From IMG/VR virus record IMGVR_UViG_2531839474_000013, positions 1-33,624 of that record: a stretch of DNA of 33,624 nt. One strand, written 5' to 3'. Under the pieces are notes generated by a model. The model made no database searches and was not told the origin of the DNA. It saw only the letters and a list, made by a program, of their open reading frames with translations. Source of the DNA: a virus. Lineage: Duplodnaviria > Heunggongvirae > Uroviricota > Caudoviricetes. This document shows, piece after piece, positions 16,455 through 32,206 of the stretch; the stretch's first letter is position 1, and the number at the start of each line of letters is the position of its first letter. The position numbers were made by a program, and so were the translations under genes.

Positions 16455-17021
16455 TCAAAAAGCAATAACTTTTTTCTCTATACCAAAAGCCATAACCATT
16501 GGTTTGTACAAAATAAATTCTGCCACCTTTAGCCAATGCTCAATGCGTCTTTCACAGGTTCTTAAACTCCATTCCGGATGTGCATCATTCAGCAGTTCAG
16601 CCATTTTGCGCTTAGTCATCCCCCGCTCCACATAACGCTGACTCAGAACATTGAGCAGCCCGGGATAACCTGCCAGTACTTCACCAATAACCCTGTCGAT
16701 TATTAACGCCTCTGAATCGGTACAATGTGCCAGCCAGCTTTTTTGATTGCCGTTGATCATATCCCGCAAAAAAGCCTCAAGTTCAGGTTTGTCCAGACCC
16801 GCTTTTTTCATCCTCCGGAGCGCCTCGTTAATTGCCGTTTTTGTCAGCTTTTTAGAGGTCAGTAATTGGTTGAACATATTTCCCGTCTTACCGTCGCCAA
16901 TATACGACCAACGCCCCCACATACGCAGTTTCCCCTGGATCCAGACACTTTCCAGCGTTTTCAGGCGTAAATGCTCACCGCTTTTGCCTGTAATTTCCGG
17001 GTATATCATATTTATGCTCAC
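16455..17021 (-). CDS. putative late-gene regulator (Q-like antiterminator, assigned by position only)
   Basis: 188 aa; lies between rusA and the late terminator/lysis genes, where lambdoid phages carry Q. I could not confirm the family by sequence. Confidence 0.45.
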   Translation of the reverse strand: MSINMIYPEITGKSGEHLRLKTLESVWIQGKLRMWGRWSYIGDGKTGNMFNQLLTSKKLTKTAINEALRRMKKAGLDKPELEAFLRDMINGNQKSWLAHCTDSEALIIDRVIGEVLAGYPGLLNVLSQRYVERGMTKRKMAELLNDAHPEWSLRTCERRIEHWLKVAEFILYKPMVMAFGIEKKVIAF

Positions 17022-19114: not shown

Positions 19115-19156
19115 ATGACTTTTTCTTTCTGTCATTTGTATACTCTAAAAATAGAG
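19115..19156 (+). promoter_or_regulatory. candidate promoter and palindromic operator of the toxin-antitoxin operon
   Basis: -35-like ATGACT, 18-nt spacer, -10 TATACT (19139..19144), then the palindrome CTCTAAAAATAGAG (19143..19156). Confidence 0.3.
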
Positions 19157-19258
19157 TGTTTTTTGAGCCGCCATTCCTTAGCAAGTCCTCTGTATGGATA
19201 TTGCCTGCCCTATTTAATTGTGTCACACTATGTATTACACAACGGTATGGAACCAAAC

Positions 19259-19630
19259 ATGCGCATTTTCAAAAATGCCTGGTTTGAACGCTTCGCACGA
19301 AAAAATCGGATTTCCGATAAAGCTCTGCGAGAAGTCGTGGAACTAGCTGATAAGGGACTCATATCCGCAGATTTGGGTAGTGGTGTCATTAAGCAGCGAT
19401 TAGCCCGAAGAGGTGGCGGTAAATCAGGCGGTTATAGGACAATAATTTTTTACCGCGTCGCAGAAAAGGCTTTTTTCATCTATGCGTACGCAAAGAATGA
19501 GAGAGAAAATATTACAGCCATCGAGGAAAACGCATTTCGAAAAGCTGCGCATCACGTTCTCAATCTTACTGATGAACAACTGGCGCAATTGATCCTGCAA
19601 GGTCAGTTTACGGAGGTACCCAATGAGTAA
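19259..19630 (+). CDS. type II toxin, RelE/ParE superfamily (HigB-2-like)
   Basis: GSGVIKQRLARRGGGKSGGYRTIIFY...YAKNERENI resembles V. cholerae HigB-2. Start placed at ATG 19259; the track's ORF from 19115 has a long, implausible leader. Toxin gene precedes the antitoxin. Confidence 0.75.
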   Translation: MRIFKNAWFERFARKNRISDKALREVVELADKGLISADLGSGVIKQRLARRGGGKSGGYRTIIFYRVAEKAFFIYAYAKNERENITAIEENAFRKAAHHVLNLTDEQLAQLILQGQFTEVPNE

Positions 19631-19940
19631 AAATTACCGCAGTGATGCACTTGCATCCGTACATGAAATGATGGAGTCACTTCAGGATATTGGCGCAGTT
19701 ACAAAACAAACTATGAGAGAGTTTGATGAACTCTGTCTGCAACCAGCGCCAACAATGTCGCCAGAAAGAATCCGGGCACTTCGCGAGCGCGAGCATCTGT
19801 CTCAACCTGTTTTCGCCAGATATCTTAATGTCAGTAAAAACCTCATTTCAGACTGGGAAAGGGGAATAAAGCGCCCTGGTGGCCCTGCCCTTCGTTTGCT
19901 TTCTGTGGTTGAGAAAAACGGAATTCAGTCAATCTGTTAA
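19623..19940 (+). CDS. HTH-XRE antitoxin (HigA-2-like)
   Basis: 105 aa; C-terminal HTH SQPVFARYLNVSKNLISDWERGIKRP; overlaps the toxin stop by 8 nt. Confidence 0.75.
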   Translation: MSKNYRSDALASVHEMMESLQDIGAVTKQTMREFDELCLQPAPTMSPERIRALREREHLSQPVFARYLNVSKNLISDWERGIKRPGGPALRLLSVVEKNGIQSIC

Positions 19941-19996: not shown

Positions 19997-20080
19997 TTAT
20001 CCCCAGCGGCAAATCGAATACACCACCAGCGCCACCGCCATCGCAATTCCTACCGTTGTGAATGCTTCAGGCCAGGTCAT
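19997..20080 (-). CDS. possible 27-aa hydrophobic peptide, translationally coupled to the upstream gene
   Basis: ATG overlaps the stop of the 131-aa gene (ATGA); AGGAGGTGA 5-7 nt upstream; product MTWPEAFTTVGIAMAVALVVYSICRWG, a single TM-like segment. Confidence 0.3.
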   Translation of the reverse strand: MTWPEAFTTVGIAMAVALVVYSICRWG

Positions 20081-20472
20081 CGATTCACCTCCTGCTCAAT
20101 ATTTTTAAGGTCATTTTCCGCATACAGTATTGCTGTCCTGGCTGCTCGTAACCGGGCTTTGGCATTTTTCTCTTCACGTTCAAGTTTTGCCACAGCTTCA
20201 CGAAGAGCATCCCGCTTTGCATAGAGTGATTTAATCTCAGACACTATGTTTTCACCGTTTCTCGCACGGTCGAGAACAAGTTCGAACGGATCTAAAGCCA
20301 ATCCACACCGTTTGCAGGTAATCGTACGATTCACTTCTGAAATTGTTGTACGGATATGCTGACAGCATTTTTGCTCGACACTTTTTTCGTCGGTTATCAC
20401 AACGTTGAGGAGTCCTTCCTCCTCTGATTTTGGCTGTACCAGAGTGATAACATTGTCGACTTCATTTTTCAT
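20077..20472 (-). CDS. hypothetical protein with CxxC...CxxC zinc-ribbon-like motif and coiled-coil C-terminus
   Basis: 131 aa; CCQH...CKRCG; AGGAGG 7 nt upstream; start overlaps the DUF551 stop (ATGA). Confidence 0.5.
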   Translation of the reverse strand: MKNEVDNVITLVQPKSEEEGLLNVVITDEKSVEQKCCQHIRTTISEVNRTITCKRCGLALDPFELVLDRARNGENIVSEIKSLYAKRDALREAVAKLEREEKNAKARLRAARTAILYAENDLKNIEQEVNR

Positions 20473-21401
20473 CCGTTCACCTCCTGCGGTGGTTCCGGTA
20501 GCGGCATCCAGTGAGTTGAGCTCTCTACTTCGACGCCGTCTTTGTCCACAAAAGCCATCTTATTCCCGCCACAAGTGGGGCAAAAAACCTTATCCCAAGA
20601 ACCGGGGAATACATTACCGAGATCATCGAGAAGAATCACATCGCAATATTCAGCAGGAACTGCATCACTACAGCTTATCCAGCCAGCCGGAGTTACCGGA
20701 GGGGTACCCGATAGCGCATTCTGCTCCAGTGATGCTTTTACAAACCACGCTGCCTGAACTATAACGCCATGAATCCAGCGCAAATCAGCATCGCGATCTT
20801 TCTTTTTCATCTTCTCGCCACTTAAAGCCTGGCTTATGTGGCTGCGTACCAAGTCTTCATGTAACGCCTTCGCATCCTCAATGGTGAAACCACCAGGCAG
20901 GCGAGTCGGGGTTACATGAGGGTTGCCTTCCCCCTGACTCTGAAGCATGGCGGCACTCCGCTCTATACCATCCAGCGCGATTCGCAGTGCCTGAATTGTG
21001 GTAGAGCTATCGTTTGGGGCTATTCCATATCGCTCGAATACAGCGATATGACCGCGCATAATCTCAGGCGTAAGCTCTTTGTAAGCATAAGCAAGAGACC
21101 CTGATACATTATCCGGCACAACCGGAACTGACGGCGCAGACAGTAAAGCCTTGGCCATACACATTGCTTCCAGTCCTGTAGCCTCAGCTATACCGTCACG
21201 AATAAGTTCAAGCCCCTCTTTTGTTAACAGTTTCATTCCTTTATACATGACGGGCACCAGCGGTTCAGCTACCAGCGATGCCAGTGCAATTTTGAATAAC
21301 TCGCCCTCTACCCGCGCCATCTCTGAATTGGGGTGGCATTTCGCAATCGCTATTTTTAATTTCGCTTCTTCGATTAATTGTTCTTTGGTTAATTCAGTCA
21401 T
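20469..21401 (-). CDS. DUF551-family phage protein
   Basis: C-terminus ...FCPTCGG...THWMPLPEPP is typical of DUF551. Start placed at ATG 21401 (AAGGAAA upstream), giving 310 aa; the track's longer ORF overlaps the upstream gene. Confidence 0.6.
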   Translation of the reverse strand: MTELTKEQLIEEAKLKIAIAKCHPNSEMARVEGELFKIALASLVAEPLVPVMYKGMKLLTKEGLELIRDGIAEATGLEAMCMAKALLSAPSVPVVPDNVSGSLAYAYKELTPEIMRGHIAVFERYGIAPNDSSTTIQALRIALDGIERSAAMLQSQGEGNPHVTPTRLPGGFTIEDAKALHEDLVRSHISQALSGEKMKKKDRDADLRWIHGVIVQAAWFVKASLEQNALSGTPPVTPAGWISCSDAVPAEYCDVILLDDLGNVFPGSWDKVFCPTCGGNKMAFVDKDGVEVESSTHWMPLPEPPQEVNG

Positions 21402-21402
21402 T

Positions 21403-21621
21403 TCAGTTTTCCTTATATGGATTAATTTTGTTGTGTAGCGCCCTGAATGGTTCCCATACCATATCGATATACAGTTCAACAATCGGCTCAAATATTTTTC
21501 CGATTATCCAAACCAGAAACAGCAGGTTTATCGGTATCATCAACACGATAAACAGAATGAGAAACAGAAATTCTGTTGTTCTACTCTTTCGCGGATATTC
21601 TTTTCTGAATAATGCAGTCAT
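21403..21621 (-). CDS. hypothetical small membrane protein
   Basis: 72 aa with a hydrophobic core FLFLILFIVLMIPINLLFLVWIIG; AT-rich; ends 2 nt before the DUF551 start. Confidence 0.4.
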   Translation of the reverse strand: MTALFRKEYPRKSRTTEFLFLILFIVLMIPINLLFLVWIIGKIFEPIVELYIDMVWEPFRALHNKINPYKEN

Positions 21622-21748
21622 TTATTACCGCCCTTTCGGGCGGCCTCCTGATGTTTTGAGGGTGCAGGAATCCCTCCGGTTAAGGATTTAATAAAAATCA
21701 CTTCTGATTTAAATTTTCAGTGTTTTGTTGCCAGGGGATTTATCGCCT

Positions 21749-22060
21749 TTACGCTTCAGCCTTATTTCGCAACCAGACACAAACCGGGCCATCTTCGGTG
21801 TCATGTATTGAACCAATAAACCATCCATCGCCCTCTGGTCGTTCCGGTTCCCAGGTGGAAATATCAGGACCATCTGCATCAAGATTAAAATCATCTTCAT
21901 CCATAGTTCTGATGGTCCATTGAAGATTATTTTCCTCCATCCATGCGTTAAACTCTTCCGTTGAAATATGTTCTCTACCATCACAGAATTTTTCATATTC
22001 AGGATGCGTCCAGCAGCCATATTCATCACGTACTACTGGTATTTCTTTAATTTCATTCAT
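21749..22060 (-). CDS. hypothetical acidic phage protein
   Basis: 103 aa; start overlaps the stop of the reconstructed IS-disrupted gene (ATGAATGA). Confidence 0.5.
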   Translation of the reverse strand: MNEIKEIPVVRDEYGCWTHPEYEKFCDGREHISTEEFNAWMEENNLQWTIRTMDEDDFNLDADGPDISTWEPERPEGDGWFIGSIHDTEDGPVCVWLRNKAEA

Positions 22061-22204
22061 TTCTGTTCTCCCACGTTTTCAGACTTTCACCACAGAACGG
22101 ACAAAATGAAACCCGCACTGGTGATTTAGAAAATTCACCGGAACGCAACATCACCAAATCAGGGCCGCGAGTTAAACTCTCATTCCAGATTTTGTATATC
22201 AGCA
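22053..22204 (-). pseudogene. C-terminal fragment of a zinc-ribbon gene split by the IS insertion
   Basis: Reads in frame with the fragment at 23515..23620 once the IS and one copy of the GCA duplication are removed; ends ...VRVSFCPFCGESLKTWENRNE*. Confidence 0.65.
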
Positions 22205-22243
22205 TGAACCGCCCCGGTTTTCCTGGAGAGTGTTTTATCTGTG
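22205..22243. repeat. terminal inverted repeat of the IS (orfB-distal end)
   Basis: TGAACCGCCCCGGTTTTCCTGGAGAGTG... is the reverse-complement match to the other end. Confidence 0.7.
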
Positions 22244-22246
22244 AAC

Positions 22247-23134
22247 TCAGGCTGCCAGATCATCGTTTCTGATGGAAGCATAATAAGCTTTTTCTGCTTC
22301 TGCCGGAGGGATATGACCCAGCCTTCCCAGCAATCGTCGATTGTTATACCAGTCCACCCACGTGAGTGTGGCCAGTTCCACTTCTGCACGGTTTTTCCAG
22401 CTCTTACGGTGTATTACCTCCGCTTTGTAAAGACCATTGATGCTCTCCGCCATCGCGTTGTCATACGAGTCACCTGTACTCCCTGTTGATGCCAGCAGTT
22501 TTGCTTCTTTTAGTCGCTCCGTATAGGCCAGTGATACATACTGAGAACCTTTATCACTGTGATGGACTGTGCCGGACGGCCGACGGGCCCACAACGCCTG
22601 CTCCAGTGCATCCAGCACGAATGTCGTTTCCATAGACGATGAGACTCGCCACCCCACGATACATCCGGCAAACACATCAATGATGAACGCCACATAGACG
22701 AAGCCCTGCCATGTGCTGACGTAAGTAAAATCAGCCACCCACAGCTGGTCAGGACGTTCTGCCACGAACTGACGGTTTACGCGGTCGCCTGCGGAAACGG
22801 CTTTCCGGCTGACGGTAGTACGGACCTTTTTACCCCGGAGAACACCGGCAAGTCCCATAACCGCCATGAGGCGCGCCACTGTACATCTGGCCACCCTGAT
22901 ACCTTCGCGTAACAACTGGCGCCAGACTTTACGCACACCGTACACCTGATGATTTTCATCGTATACGCGCTGTATCTCTCTCTTCAGCCAGTCATCGCGC
23001 TGAGCACGGGCACTGCGTTTATCAGGATGATGTCGCTGTTGCTGACAGTGGTAATACGTTGACGGGGCAATATGCAGTTCACTGCATACCGGTCCGACCC
23101 CGTACTGCTCACGCAGCTTATCCAGCAGCGGCAT
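22247..23134 (-). CDS. IS3-family transposase OrfB (DDE catalytic domain)
   Basis: 295 aa with integrase-core-like motifs (ADFTYV, HSDKGSQY, DNAMAES); in the -1 frame relative to orfA. Confidence 0.9.
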   Translation of the reverse strand: MPLLDKLREQYGVGPVCSELHIAPSTYYHCQQQRHHPDKRSARAQRDDWLKREIQRVYDENHQVYGVRKVWRQLLREGIRVARCTVARLMAVMGLAGVLRGKKVRTTVSRKAVSAGDRVNRQFVAERPDQLWVADFTYVSTWQGFVYVAFIIDVFAGCIVGWRVSSSMETTFVLDALEQALWARRPSGTVHHSDKGSQYVSLAYTERLKEAKLLASTGSTGDSYDNAMAESINGLYKAEVIHRKSWKNRAEVELATLTWVDWYNNRRLLGRLGHIPPAEAEKAYYASIRNDDLAA

Positions 23135-23460
23135 TATTTTTTCCAGAGGCGGTCGAACTCCGCCTTCGCAAAATAAGCGGAAGCCTGGCGAAGGATATCG
23201 TTACTGCGGCGCAGTTCACGATTTTCACGTTCCAGCTCTTTCAGACGCTGACGTTCAGCGGTGGTGAGTCCACCATCACCACTCCCGGTATCCCGCTCAT
23301 GCTGACGAACCCACACACGCAGAGTCTCTGGTGTACAGCCAATCTTTGGGGCAATGGAACAAATTGCCGCCCATTGTGAGTCATATTCGCCCTGACTTTC
23401 CAGAACCATACGAACTGCCCGTTGACGGACCTCGGGGGAAAAACGTGTATTTTTAGTCAT
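23134..23460 (-). CDS. IS3-family transposase OrfA (HTH domain)
   Basis: 108 aa with HTH and leucine-zipper-like C-terminus; ends TGG AAA AAA TAA, where orfB continues in the -1 frame. Confidence 0.9.
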
Positions 23461-23475
23461 CCTGTTTACCTCTTT

Positions 23476-23514
23476 CTCAGGGAGTTTAGTCTCCAGGATT
23501 CCCGGGGCGGTTCA
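23476..23514. repeat. terminal inverted repeat of the IS (orfA-proximal end)
   Basis: Minus strand TGAACCGCCCCGGGAATCCTGGAGACTAAACTCC..., 54 nt upstream of the orfA ATG. Confidence 0.7.
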
Positions 23515-23620
23515 GCAGACCTTTTCGCGTCGTGTATTCAGCATCATGCTCAAGGGATTTTGCCAGTGCTGCACATGGTTCTATCTTGTTGCCATTAATT
23601 TGGCATTTTGACTCACTCAC
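23515..23620 (-). pseudogene. N-terminal fragment of a zinc-ribbon gene split by the IS insertion
   Basis: GTG at 23620 with AAGGAGA 6-7 nt upstream; 35 codons (..SESKCQINGNKIEPCAALAKSLEHDAEYTTRKGL) then runs into the IS and stops after about 9 codons. Confidence 0.65.
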
Positions 23621-24297
23621 TGGTTGTCTCCTTTGCGAATCTGTTCCGCCCATTCTTCAAGGGATTTCTCCGCATATTCACCGGACAGACCATCAATCGG
23701 GTGCGGTTCATTAGCCAACTCTTCTTTCGCTGACAGAATCATGCGCGTAACGTCGAAAACTTCACGTAAAGACTTATTGATAAATCCGTGATTGAACGCA
23801 GCAGCAAGACGGCTGGCGGTATAGTTAATCCCCTCGTTGCGTGCTTCCGCACGTACATCAGCCAGGAAAGCATCTGTAGCCGGGGTTTGCGGCATCCTTC
23901 CGTCTATTGCACAGATATACGCATCAGATAGTTCATCCTGCTCGCCATCAAACACGTAGCAACTCTGTACGATAAATTTATTCAGCCCCGCATTCTCCGC
24001 CGCAAGCGCAGCAAGATTAGTCTCCAGCCCTGCAATGCGTTCCTCCAGTTCGTAGACTCTGCATTGCTCTTTATCATCAATCAGATATAACCCAAGACAT
24101 TCGCTTTCTACCCAACCGCCGAAATCATGATCGTAACGCTCACATGAAAACTCACCATCGCTGTCCCTTGTTGGAATGGTGTAACTGTCTAATGGGCCAC
24201 CGTACGTCGGTACATTTCCCAATTTCGGATGCTCAATCCACATGAAAAATGCACGTCCGGTTATAGGGCAAATATCTGGTCGCCATTGATTACTCAC
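23617..24297 (-). CDS. hypothetical phage early protein with coiled-coil segment
   Basis: Start placed at GTG 24297 (AGGAGG 6 nt upstream), overlapping the upstream stop; about 226 aa. Confidence 0.5.
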   Translation of the reverse strand: MSNQWRPDICPITGRAFFMWIEHPKLGNVPTYGGPLDSYTIPTRDSDGEFSCERYDHDFGGWVESECLGLYLIDDKEQCRVYELEERIAGLETNLAALAAENAGLNKFIVQSCYVFDGEQDELSDAYICAIDGRMPQTPATDAFLADVRAEARNEGINYTASRLAAAFNHGFINKSLREVFDVTRMILSAKEELANEPHPIDGLSGEYAEKSLEEWAEQIRKGDNQ

Positions 24298-24589
24298 TGT
24301 TTGCCTCCTGGAAAATAACTGCATGCCCCAGCTTCTCCGCCAGTGCCAGTTCTGCCTTAGCGCCTGTTGACCACTGCCAGCCTTTCAGCATGTAAATCGC
24401 ATCCACACAACGAATCATTGCCATGCAAATATCCATGTAGTGTGGCTGTGTCAGCCCGTCTGGAAGTACTGCCGGGTTTAAGACTGTATGCCCTTCCCGT
24501 TTCAGTTCCTCTTCCGCATTGTGGAACGCCTCACGGTTGAAATTTTTATACCCGGTCATCGGACCAGCGATATAAACCCTTACCCTCAC
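24290..24589 (-). CDS. DUF4406-family protein (nucleoside 2-deoxyribosyltransferase-like)
   Basis: 99 aa; N-terminal VRVYIAGPMTGY motif typical of this family. Confidence 0.65.
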   Translation of the reverse strand: MRVRVYIAGPMTGYKNFNREAFHNAEEELKREGHTVLNPAVLPDGLTQPHYMDICMAMIRCVDAIYMLKGWQWSTGAKAELALAEKLGHAVIFQEANSE

Positions 24590-24987
24590 ACCATCACCTC
24601 CTGAAAATCTCCCTGATAGAACGCCAGTACACGCTGCATAACCTCACTCTGACGGCACTCACGGCAAATTATGTTCTGGTGCCGGTCGTAGGGTTGTGCT
24701 CCGGCTTTACCCTGTTTTTGTGCTGGTTTGCGGATAACCCTTGCTTTTCTTGCCGAACTTGCCAGCCATTCACGGTAAACTCCCTCTGAAAGGAACACCC
24801 CTTTTCCGCTGACAACATACACTTCGCCCTGGCTCACCAGCATCTTCAGGTACCGGCGAATGGAATCATGTGAAGCATATGTTGTCGATGCCAGTTGTGG
24901 CATTGTCATACGCCCGTTTTTACGTACAAGGTCAACGATGTGACGCTGTAATCTTTCCCGCTGTTCTTCGGTATAAATAGCCCCCAT
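24586..24987 (-). CDS. hypothetical protein, possible winged-helix DNA-binding
   Basis: 133 aa; translationally coupled (ATGA overlap) to the DUF4406 gene. Confidence 0.5.
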   Translation of the reverse strand: MGAIYTEEQRERLQRHIVDLVRKNGRMTMPQLASTTYASHDSIRRYLKMLVSQGEVYVVSGKGVFLSEGVYREWLASSARKARVIRKPAQKQGKAGAQPYDRHQNIICRECRQSEVMQRVLAFYQGDFQEVMV

Positions 24988-25029
24988 AAACTCTCCTGAG
25001 AAAATAACTTCATAACCTCAAATCAACAC

Positions 25030-25995
25030 TTACCCCCTGAACCCCGGCGGAATTTCGGTGTCCGGTTCAGAAATGTGATTCACGCAACGCTGTACAGGCG
25101 AACGCCCCAGACGAATAACCAGCTCATCCCATTTTTCGCGAAGCTTTGACGGGCTCATGACGTTTTTTACCCAGAAGGGATCCCGCTGCACCCGACCAAA
25201 CATTTCGCAAATTTGTCTGTGAGTTCTGCCATCCAGCATCCGCATTGTGCGCACATCATTGGCCCATGCAGTCCAATTGGGTTCTTTCGGTCGCATGATT
25301 TCGCCATCATCGCTGGCAGCCTGCTCGTAAAGACTCACGATTCGTCCCCAGATCCACTGCGCACACGCTAAATCTTCCTGGCTGCCCCACTGGCGTTTTT
25401 TCGCACTGAACACAACCGCGTCAGGATGTCGGGTCAAAAAATCCTGTTCAGCCGTCTGCATGTCCGGTTGCAAAGCTTCCGGACGAGAAGTGTTTTTATT
25501 CTCTGTAGTAATCTCTGTTGTATTCTCTGTAAGATCATCAGGCCATTTTGACCCGATGACATTGTGTCGTTTTGAACCAATGGAGCGTGTCATTTTGGCC
25601 TCTTCCATCGTGTCATTTTGACCTGATGGAGCGGCGCATTTTGACCTGATGGATTCGCTCACTTTGCCACCATCTAAAAGCTCGCTCTCGTAATTAATCG
25701 TGTAAAAATTAGTCATGTCACGCTTTGATTTGTTGAGCTTTTCGCAACGCAAAAGCCCCAGCGCTTTCAGACTTGCAAATGCGCGTTTTAACGTTGACTC
25801 TGACCAGAACGGGAACTGTTCCAGCCATTGTTCTGTTGTGTTATAAATCCAGCGAACACCATCACATTCCATGCCGGAACCGGTATCTCTCAACCAGTAA
25901 TGCAGCTGCTGCAACACGATGGCTTCGTTCAGACCAATTTTCATCGCCAGCTGCGTGTTAATAACCAGTGGGCGTTCAGCAAAAAGAAGACTCAT
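25030..25995 (-). CDS. replication initiator (lambda O-like role) with iterons inside the gene
   Basis: Start placed at ATG 25995 (MSLLFAERPL..), about 321 aa; immediately downstream of the immunity region; the coding sequence contains the repeats listed at 25544..25680. Confidence 0.65.
   Translation of the reverse strand: MSLLFAERPLVINTQLAMKIGLNEAIVLQQLHYWLRDTGSGMECDGVRWIYNTTEQWLEQFPFWSESTLKRAFASLKALGLLRCEKLNKSKRDMTNFYTINYESELLDGGKVSESIRSKCAAPSGQNDTMEEAKMTRSIGSKRHNVIGSKWPDDLTENTTEITTENKNTSRPEALQPDMQTAEQDFLTRHPDAVVFSAKKRQWGSQEDLACAQWIWGRIVSLYEQAASDDGEIMRPKEPNWTAWANDVRTMRMLDGRTHRQICEMFGRVQRDPFWVKNVMSPSKLREKWDELVIRLGRSPVQRCVNHISEPDTEIPPGFRG
25544..25680. repeat. candidate replication origin: five to six iteron-like direct repeats
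   Basis: CATTTTGACC(C/T)GATGGA-like units at 23-24 bp spacing, followed by an AT-rich stretch at 25681..25720; they encode the repetitive peptide ..SIRSK..SIGSK..VIGSK... Confidence 0.6.
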
Positions 25996-28704: not shown

Positions 28705-29265
28705 TTCATCCTCCTGAGGGTTAGTAATTAAGGAGTTCTCCACGGGTGAGGTGGAGTGCGTGCGCCGGACACGGGTGAGCATCCGGCACTGACAGTTTAC
28801 TGAAAGGATATCTCCCTGAAAAGTCAGGGCATAACGCGAAAGCGCACGGCGAAGTTGTTGGTTCATAGATAGCCTGTCGTTAAATTTTCGTCGACCGTGC
28901 GCTTCCGGTTGTGGCACTCCGCGAAATGGCGCGGCGGTAAGTATGGCGGGGTTATTCCTTCCCCGTTGAGGACACCGGGTTGTCAGGTTGACCATACGCT
29001 TAAGTGACAACCCCGCTGCAACGCCCTCTGTTATCAATTTTCTGGTGACGTTTGGCGGTATCAGTTTTACTCCGTGACTGCTCTGCCGCCCTTTTTAAAG
29101 TGAATTTTGTGATGCGGTGAATGCGGCTAAGCGCACGAGGAACAGTTAAAACCAAAAACAGTGTTATGGGTGGATTCTCTGTATCCGGCGTTAATTGTTA
29201 ACTGGTTAACGTCACCTGGAGGCACCAGGCACTGCATCACAAAATTCATTGTTGAGGACGCGATA

Positions 29266-29734: not shown

Positions 29735-32206
29735 ATGAGTAAAGTCTTTATTTGCGCCGCCATTCCGGACGAACAGGCAATAAAGGAAGAAGGTGCAGTC
29801 GCTGTAGCCACTGCCATTGAAGCCGGTGATGAACGTCGCGCCCGCGCAAAATTTCACTGGCAATTCCTGGAACATTATCCGGCTGCTCAGGACTGCGCTT
29901 ATAAATTTATTATCTGCGAGGATAAACCTGGCATACCCCGCCCTGCCCTCGATTCATGGGATGCTGAATATATGCAGGAAAACCGCTGGGATGAGGATTC
30001 TGCTTCTTTTGTCCCGGTTGAGACTGAATCCGATCTGATGAACGTCACTTTTGACAAGCTGGCCCCTGAAGTACAGAACGCTGTCATGGTTAAGTTCGAC
30101 ACATGTGAAAACATCACCGTTGATATGGTGATTAGCGCGCAGGAATTGTTGCAGGAAGACATGGCAACATTCGACGGACATATCGTTGAAGCGTTGATGA
30201 AAATGCCAGAAGTTAACGCCATGTATCCGGAGCTTAAGCTGCATGCCATCGGGTGGGTTAAGCATAAATGTAAGCCTGGTGCCAAATGGCCCGAAATTCA
30301 GGCAGAGATGCGCATCTGGAAAAAACGTCGCGAAGGTGAACGCAAGGAAACCGGAAAATACACGTCTGTTGTTGATCTCGCCCGCGCCAGAGCCAATCAA
30401 CAGAACACTGAAAATTCAACAGGAAAAATCAGCCCGGTCATTGCTGCCACTCATCGCGAATACAAGCAGACATGGAAAACACTGGATGACGAACTGGCCT
30501 ACGCTCTCTGGCCTGGTGATGTGGATGCCGGAAACATTGACGGCAGCATCCATCGCTGGGCAAAAAATGAAGTTATCGACAACGACCGCGAAGACTGGAA
30601 GCGTATCTCGGCATCAATGCGCAAACAGCCTGATGCCCTTCGCTACGACCGCCAGACTATTTTTGGCCTTGTCCGTGAACGTCCGATCGACATTCACAAA
30701 GACCCCATAGCACTGAACAAATACATCACCGAATACCTGACGACAAAGGGCGTGTTTGAAAATGAAGAAACAAACCAGAGCACAACTGATACTCTCCAGT
30801 CACCAGAAACACAAACTGATGCAGTGGAAACGGAAATACCGGACAACCAAAAAAACGAAACCAAACCGGAAGCCGAACCATCTGTAGAGCGTGAAGGGCC
30901 GTTCTACTTCCTCTCCACAGACAAGGACAGAGAAAAATACGGTCGCGCAAACAAACTTTCTGGTCTGGATAAGGCACTGGCTGCAGGCGCCACTGAAATC
31001 ACAAAAGAAGAATATTTCGCCCGAAAAAACGGCACATACACAGGCTCACAACAAAATACAGATACAGCTGAAAAGACAGAACAACCAGAGCCGATAAAAG
31101 TTACCGCTGACGAAGTAAACAAAATTATGCAGGCAGCCAATATCAGCCAGCCTGACGCCGATAAGTTGCTTGCTGCATCACGTGGTGAATTTATTGAAGG
31201 GATTAGCGACCCGAATGATCCGAAATGGATTAAGGGGATCCAGACCCGCGATACTGTGAACCAGAACCAGCAAGAAACGGAACAGAACGACCAAAAAGCG
31301 GAACAAAACAGCCCAAATACGCAACAAAACGAGCCAGAAACGAAACAACCTGAACCAGTAGTGCAACAGGAACCGGAAAAAATCTGCACCGCCTGCGGTC
31401 AGACCGGCGGCGGCAACTGCCCTGATTGTGGCGCGGTGATGGGCGACGCAACATACCAGGAAACATTCGATGAAGAGAATCAGCCTGAAGTTCAGGAAAA
31501 TGATCCGGAGGAAATGGAAGGCACTGAACATCAACACAAGGAGAACACTGGCGGCAATCAGCATCACAATAGCGATAATGAAACTGGCGAGACGGCAGAT
31601 CACTCAATTAAGGCGAACGGTCATCAAAAAATCACATCCACCAGCAGAACGGGGAACCATCTAATGATCGACCTTGAAACCATGGGAAAAAATCCCGATG
31701 CCCCGATCATCTCAATAGGTGCAATATTTTTCGATCCGCAAACCGGAGATATGGGACCGGAATTTAGTAAGACTATCGATCTGGAAACTGCTGGCGGAGT
31801 CATTGATCGGGACACCATTAAATGGTGGCTTAAGCAATCACGCGAAGCGCAATCTGCCATTATGACCGATGAAATCCCGTTAGATGATGCACTGTTACAA
31901 TTGCGGGAATTTATCGACGAAAACTCCGGTGAATTTTTTGTTCAGGTCTGGGGAAATGGAGCCAACTTCGACAACACGATTTTGCGCCGTTCATACGAAC
32001 GGCAGGGGATCCCCTGCCCGTGGCGTTACTACAACGATCGCGATGTACGCACAATCGTTGAGCTGGGGAAAGCCATAGACTTCGATGCCAGAACGGCTAT
32101 TCCATTCGAAGGTGAGCGCCATAATGCACTTGATGACGCCCGTTACCAGGCAAAATACGTTTCAGTTATCTGGCAAAAACTGATCCCGAGTCAGGCTGAT
32201 TTTTAA
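29735..32206 (+). CDS. large phage exonuclease: N-terminal region of unknown function, low-complexity linker with C4 zinc ribbon, C-terminal DEDDh 3'-5' exonuclease domain
   Basis: 823 aa. C-terminal motifs IDLETMG (Exo I), [12 protein letters not shown] (Exo II), HNALDDARY (Exo III). Linker is Q/E/N/T-rich with [16 protein letters not shown]. Lies in the exo position upstream of xis and int. Confidence 0.8.

Follow-up and report, generated by a model that had tools for sequence, protein, structure and literature searches.

A small accessory gene of a lambdoid prophage has almost certainly been interrupted by a recent transposition of IS629. The element entered codon 35/36 of this 84-codon gene, which belongs to the phrog_4030 family, and the 3-bp target GCA was duplicated. 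The window, that is, the whole 33,624-nt stretch of DNA that was analysed, is a lambdoid prophage with Rac/Qin-type immunity. The first-pass annotation had read the locus as a transposition into a gene of an intact operon; our analysis supported this reading, and nothing that we found contradicted an insertion.

Empty site and inserted element

The window segment from 20000 to 25300 (5301 bp) was used as a query against 5,426 complete E. coli genomes. Both flanks were matched at 100.0% identity in E. coli Z1323CEC0019 (chicken, Korea) and JB2 (rabbit farm), where they spanned exactly 3988 bp (5301 - 1310 - 3), and E. coli PK8241 carried the same empty site at 99.8% identity. In the window, GCA stands directly outside both ends of the element (22202-22204 and 23515-23517), and it is present as a single copy at the empty sites. 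A 3-bp match between flanks would alone have a probability of 1/64 by chance, but two complete genomes match the flanks across 3988 bp at 100.0% identity and lack exactly 1313 bp that the window has, which puts the insertion pattern far beyond chance. The GCA duplication on both sides that had been described earlier is therefore real, and its length agrees with the duplications of 3-4 bp reported for IS629 (PMC3271280).

The flanks overlapped by 6 nt instead of 3 nt in the BLAST alignments because the target TCA matches the terminal TCA of the IS. A 6-bp duplication (TCAGCA) was rejected, since the end-to-end match to annotated IS629 shows that the first TCA is the canonical terminus of the element. 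Comparison of 22199-22204 with 23512-23517 gave the target as TCA followed by GCA, with the three bases before the duplication equal to the IS terminal TCA. This identity between the target and the IS end is probably a coincidence.

The complete IS629 occupies 22205-23514 on the minus strand (1310 bp), belongs to the IS3 family, and bears the PGAP name "IS3-like element IS1203 family transposase". All 1310 of its 1310 positions aligned ungapped to the annotated "insertion sequence:IS629" of VT2-Sakai (AP000422) at 95.6% identity, and the 25-bp left and right repeats annotated in that record coincide with the ends of the window element. The element was 99.6% identical to IS629 of phage JLK-2012 (JQ347801), and several E. 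coli plasmids and a Stx2a phage carry copies that match it at 100% identity. The name "IS629-like" given in the first-pass annotation was thus right, as this end-to-end match and the nearly or fully identical copies elsewhere indicate. We take the element to be an IS629 isoform, the divergence of about 4.4% from the Sakai copy presumably falling within the isoform range of ISfinder conventions.

A repeat-pair search placed the orfA-proximal left terminal inverted repeat (TGAACCGCCCCGGGAATCCTGGAGA) at 23490-23514 and the orfB-proximal right repeat at 22205-22229, both on the minus strand and both equal to the repeats annotated in AP000422. The 25-nt arms are imperfect (22/25 paired, 88% complementary), both begin TGAACCGCCCCGG, and the ends fit the 5'-TG...CA-3' pattern of the IS3 family. 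The earlier description of a 1310-bp element with imperfect terminal inverted repeats was confirmed in its ends, length and repeats alike.

The open reading frame orfA (23134-23460, minus strand; 108 aa) contains an HTH_Tnp_1 domain (PF01527, E 1.4e-12), and orfB (22247-23134, minus strand; 295 aa from its ATG) encodes a DDE integrase-core transposase (rve, PF00665, E 1.1e-25) that also has HTH_21; its Pfam matches comprised PF00665, PF13276 and PF13683. The orfB frame is -1 relative to orfA, and the two genes overlap as TAATG, 1 base back from the orfA stop and after an A6 run. An ALIL pseudoknot, the stimulator of programmed -1 frameshifting in IS3-family elements, straddles this overlap at 23063-23179 on the minus strand (Rfam RF01497, 120.9 bits with a gathering score of 50, covering model positions 1-117 of 117). 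The ends, the intact domains of orfA and orfB and the full-length pseudoknot indicate that the element is complete and functional-looking. From the intact ORFs and the 100%-identical copies, we infer that it is transposition-competent by the copy-out-paste-in route with a circle intermediate. The element did not differ in structure from the IS629 reference (isoform IS1203; Shigella sonnei and E. coli O157:H7), which shares with it the length of 1310 bp, the 25-bp repeats starting TGAAC, the orfA/orfB -1 frameshift with an ALIL pseudoknot and the 3-bp duplication.

The split gene and its product

Deletion of the element and one GCA copy joined minus-strand positions 23620..23518 to 22204..22053 and gave a single uninterrupted frame, 255 nt long with its stop. 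The GTG start (23620-23618) is preceded by AAGGAGA and overlaps the TGA of the upstream gene as GTGA. The first-pass annotation had likewise reported an uninterrupted ORF with this start and AAGGAGA, but had counted 82 codons, whereas the frame has 84. The rebuilt stop overlaps the ATG of the downstream gene as ATGAATGA, in line with the overlap that had been claimed.

At the empty sites, PGAP annotated an intact 255-nt CDS (WP_000004314.1, 84 aa) with the same neighbours as in the window. Homologues of 84 aa are also annotated in phages Rac-SA53 ("rac21") and mEp460_4F5 (VUD37834.1), both 98% identical. Alignment of the flanks with prophages that lack the IS, which had been proposed as a check, thus recovered an uninterrupted 84-aa gene in Rac-SA53, mEp460_4F5, PK8241, Z1323CEC0019 and JB2. 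The rebuilt protein matched phrog_4030 over residues 2-83 (profile positions 2-84 of 85, E 6.8e-41), and 68 homologues were found in enterobacterial genomes, mostly E. coli, with Salmonella and Citrobacter among the named sources. The gene resembles its relatives of the phrog_4030, "rac21" and WP_000004314.1 type in sequence (98-100% identity), length and neighbours, and differs from them in that the window copy is split.

The rebuilt protein has four cysteines (C6, C16, C69 and C72). The CPFC pair (C69-C72) had been read correctly in the earlier analysis, whereas the first pair is C6-x9-C16 instead of C-x8-C. Among 20 homologues with identities down to 50%, C69 and C72 were invariant and C6 and C16 were at least 90% conserved; this conservation is weak evidence because the family is shallow. 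CPFCG (residues 69-73) was the only CxxC-type knuckle in the protein, and a second one was absent; the other pair, C-x9-C, is 53 residues away. The best Pfam match (E 0.05) fell below the cut-off, and the sub-threshold hits to DUF6980 and DUF7835 both came through the CPFCG motif. A PDB profile search returned one weak match, RpoM-2 (7oqy_Y, E 0.0034), which was rejected as a homologue because the match was carried only by a single fCPxCG motif. The AlphaFold2 model of a 96%-identical homologue, built with 18 relatives, was unusable (mean pLDDT 42.9, pTM 0.27). Judged from the sequence, a zinc-binding role of the protein is plausible, and the label "zinc ribbon" is not established.

The missing Pfam family and known function, together with this poor AlphaFold model, would suit an 84-codon frame that is no real gene, the IS having entered a non-coding spacer between open frames that arose by coincidence. 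We consider this exceedingly improbable in view of the full-length phrog_4030 match, the homologues that keep invariant residues in both halves down to 50% identity, the identical start and stop with which independent annotators call the 255-nt CDS, and the overlap of its start and stop signals with both neighbours. The annotations at the empty sites, the phage homologues and the phrog_4030 match indicate instead that the rebuilt frame is a real gene to which both halves belong.

As it stands in the window, the 5' fragment (23486-23620, minus strand) runs from the GTG start through native residues 1-36 and 8 IS codons (NRPGNPGD) to a TAA, giving a truncated product of 44 aa. About 25 nt separate its stop from the orfA start downstream. 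The 3' fragment (22053-22204, minus strand) comprises residues 36/37-84 and contains CPFC. The terminal A of the IS and the TG of the duplication form an in-frame ATG (22205-22203, minus strand), which opens a 50-aa ORF that ends in the ATGAATGA overlap; no convincing Shine-Dalgarno sequence was seen before this ATG when the sequence was read. A look-up of the 50-aa and 55-aa ATG-started fragment ORFs found neither on record.

Truncated homologues in the protein database were considered as further cases of the same insertion and rejected, as none had the NRPGNPGD tail and they were contig-end fragments or mosaic chimeras. In the chimeric homologues P0062 and P0065-P0068, one half is fused to unrelated sequence at about residues 31-52. 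The sequences of these chimeras suggest a mosaic recombination joint inside the small phrog_4030-type gene in lambdoid phages.

Distribution and age of the insertion

An occupied site was found in none of the 5,426 complete E. coli genomes, in which no place covered at least 80% of the junction-spanning query. Searches of JGI metagenome contigs and of GTDB species-representative genomes did not recover the exact left junction. The 44-aa truncated product was called only on the short-read Logan contig SRR024328_1504. This contig matched window positions 23487-25237 at 100% identity; it extends 28 nt into the IS before it ends and so has the 5' junction in common with the window. It is perhaps not fully independent, because the window and the contig may share a source strain.

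IS629 is multicopy in many E. coli genomes (matched in 4196 of the 5,426), and an assembler could have misplaced one of these repeat copies in a genome whose gene is in fact intact; the lack of an occupied site in any complete RefSeq E. coli genome would fit such an artefact. However, a misplaced repeat would not give a clean 3-bp direct duplication at canonical IS ends, and the separate Logan contig crosses the boundary between phage gene and IS end with 100% identity. The likelihood of an assembly artefact is thus minute, and we regard the insertion as a genuine transposition event.

The flanks showed no substitutions against the empty-site genomes over about 4 kb. This zero divergence, the identity of the IS copy (100%) to other copies and the single known lineage point to an insertion that is young and lineage-specific. 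The word "recent" in the first-pass annotation is borne out by the same evidence, together with the absence of the occupied site from complete genomes.

In strain 319 (L004 2859-4453) and in O145, O111 and O121 genomes, independent IS629/IS1203 insertions split a gene annotated as "DNA-binding protein". These STEC insertions lie one gene upstream of the equivalent cluster of the small gene and the 103-aa gene, and the region has therefore been hit repeatedly. The insertions in O157 strain 319 and in the O145 and O111 strains are thus displaced by one gene from the equivalent of the window's site, which, in contrast, is unoccupied in 5,426 of 5,426 complete E. coli genomes. As in the prophages of EHEC O157:H7 and other STEC, the element has targeted a lambdoid prophage gene. 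In four O157 genomes, 62% of IS629 sites are in prophages (PMC3271280), and with this proportion and the duplications of 3-4 bp reported in the same study, every feature of the insertion in the window is expected.

Operon context and predicted consequences

The right end of the prophage carries an integrase and an excisionase, and kil, a dicB-region leftward operon and the DicF sRNA are present, with an HTH repressor opposite YdaS-like and YdaT-like genes. The DicF antisense sRNA (29040-29091, plus strand; RF00039, 76.7 bits, full length) is part of the leftward ydfABC-dicB-kil operon, and its presence identifies the prophage as Qin/Rac-type. An 823-aa "exonuclease" is encoded at 29735-32206 on the plus strand; its C-terminal 170 residues matched the Rv2179c-like 3'-5' exoribonuclease domain (PF16473, E 9e-68), and its N-terminal approximately 640 residues had no Pfam match.

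On the minus strand, the gene order is replication protein, DUF977, DUF4406, ead/Ea22-like gene, split gene, 103-aa gene, DUF4014, DUF551, 131-aa gene, DUF968, RusA and a Q-like antiterminator (DUF1133/Phage_antitermQ; 16455-17021), beyond which lie lysis, terminase, head and tail genes. The gene upstream of the split gene (23617-24324, minus strand) matched phrog_614 and phrog_368 and has "ead/Ea22-like" annotations in relatives. The downstream 103-aa gene (21749-22060, minus strand) matched phrog_1372 and corresponds to WP_001002669.1 in the empty-site genomes. The split gene therefore counts as an accessory gene of the rightward, delayed-early operon, where it lies in the nin-like section and in the interval from the replication genes to the Q-like gene, and because of this position the earlier label "early gene" was fair. 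No N-like antiterminator was identified in the window prophage.

Counted from its first ATG, the ead/Ea22-like ORF has 235 aa, and it shares 35 nt with the end of the DUF4406 gene. PGAP called 155 aa in identical DNA and another gene caller 226 aa, and the true start of this gene is therefore uncertain. A RelE/ParE-family toxin gene (PF06296, E 1e-46) with an HTH antitoxin gene (19115-19940, plus strand) breaks the minus-strand run between the 131-aa gene and DUF968, that is, between the nin-like genes and the DUF968/RusA/Q group. Early rightward transcription would cross this pair antisense, as the pair lies on the opposite strand within the operon.

A functional-looking copy of IS629, an element that moves by copy-out-paste-in, has almost certainly entered codon 35/36 of the 84-codon gene, and 3 bp of the target (GCA) were copied in the process. 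The split gene would thereby be lost, since the 44-aa stub would retain only two of the cysteines, C6 and C16, and the half with CPFC would lack a ribosome-binding site of its own. We infer that the phrog_4030-type gene is inactivated. The tight translational coupling of the upstream gene, the split gene and the downstream gene through the GTGA and ATGAATGA overlaps would be broken, although ribosomes that start at the ATG formed at the junction might, in principle, still translate into the overlap with the downstream gene to some extent. Furthermore, the early rightward transcript would have to traverse 1.3 kb of IS on its way to the downstream genes, among which is the Q-like gene. On these sequence grounds, activation of the late genes after induction may plausibly be subject to some polarity. 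The Q-like gene is a more consequential polarity target than the genes at 20077-22060 that had been named in the first-pass annotation.

A promoter and terminator consensus scan over the IS and its junctions gave 2 promoter-like sites (3.8 expected) and 4 terminator-like sites (2.5 expected), with no excess over the shuffled expectation. The sequence thus bore no sign of a strong terminator in the IS, and with no excess of either class of site, polarity remains no more than a reasonable expectation. An outward hybrid promoter at the IS junction was dropped as a candidate, as the scan gave nothing above the shuffled expectation.

We also considered whether the insertion has been kept for a benefit, either through an outward promoter or a new start codon for the downstream genes or as a selected block that locks the prophage. 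The ATG made from the IS base A and the TG of the duplication, which heads a 50-aa C-terminal fragment retaining the ATGAATGA overlap, is compatible with such a benefit, as are the co-directional placement of the IS after the replication genes and before the Q-like gene and the IS629/IS1203 copies one gene upstream in the equivalent region of other STEC prophages. However, the minus strand showed no sigma-70-like site where the IS meets the flank, the new ATG has no convincing Shine-Dalgarno sequence ahead of it, and an insertion known from a single lineage, with flanks that have not diverged at all, is more easily explained as a young event, neutral or mildly deleterious, than as one under selection. 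We therefore regard a benefit as very unlikely and prefer a recent transposition without such an advantage.

The transposase genes are co-oriented with the surrounding phage operon, and an early phage transcript would for this reason also feed transposase expression. A further reading builds on this arrangement: as a strong polar barrier, the IS would separate the replication module from the Q-like gene, so that the domesticated prophage would replicate on induction with its late genes off, and bursts of transposition would be coupled to induction. We consider this reading unlikely, although somewhat less so than a selected benefit. If it were true, IS629 transposition bursts would be tied to prophage induction and the prophage would be locked in.

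Polar IS insertions in the rightward operon of lambda are classical, an example being the IS2 insertion r32 between cII and O. The insertion in the window is similar to r32 in that an IS has entered the early rightward operon ahead of genes that are required at a later stage. It differs in that the window prophage has no identified N-like antiterminator and in that polarity in the window is a prediction only.

As a biological event, the insertion is routine prophage damage, in which a known element struck a known class of target by a known mechanism, and it constitutes no new biological system. It matters little beyond annotation and makes no open question testable. For annotation, the two fragments should be recorded as one pseudogene disrupted by IS629 rather than as separate small ORFs. 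The insertion site is a strain-specific marker of the type used in IS629 typing of STEC lineages. For the prophage itself, late-gene activation may be impaired.
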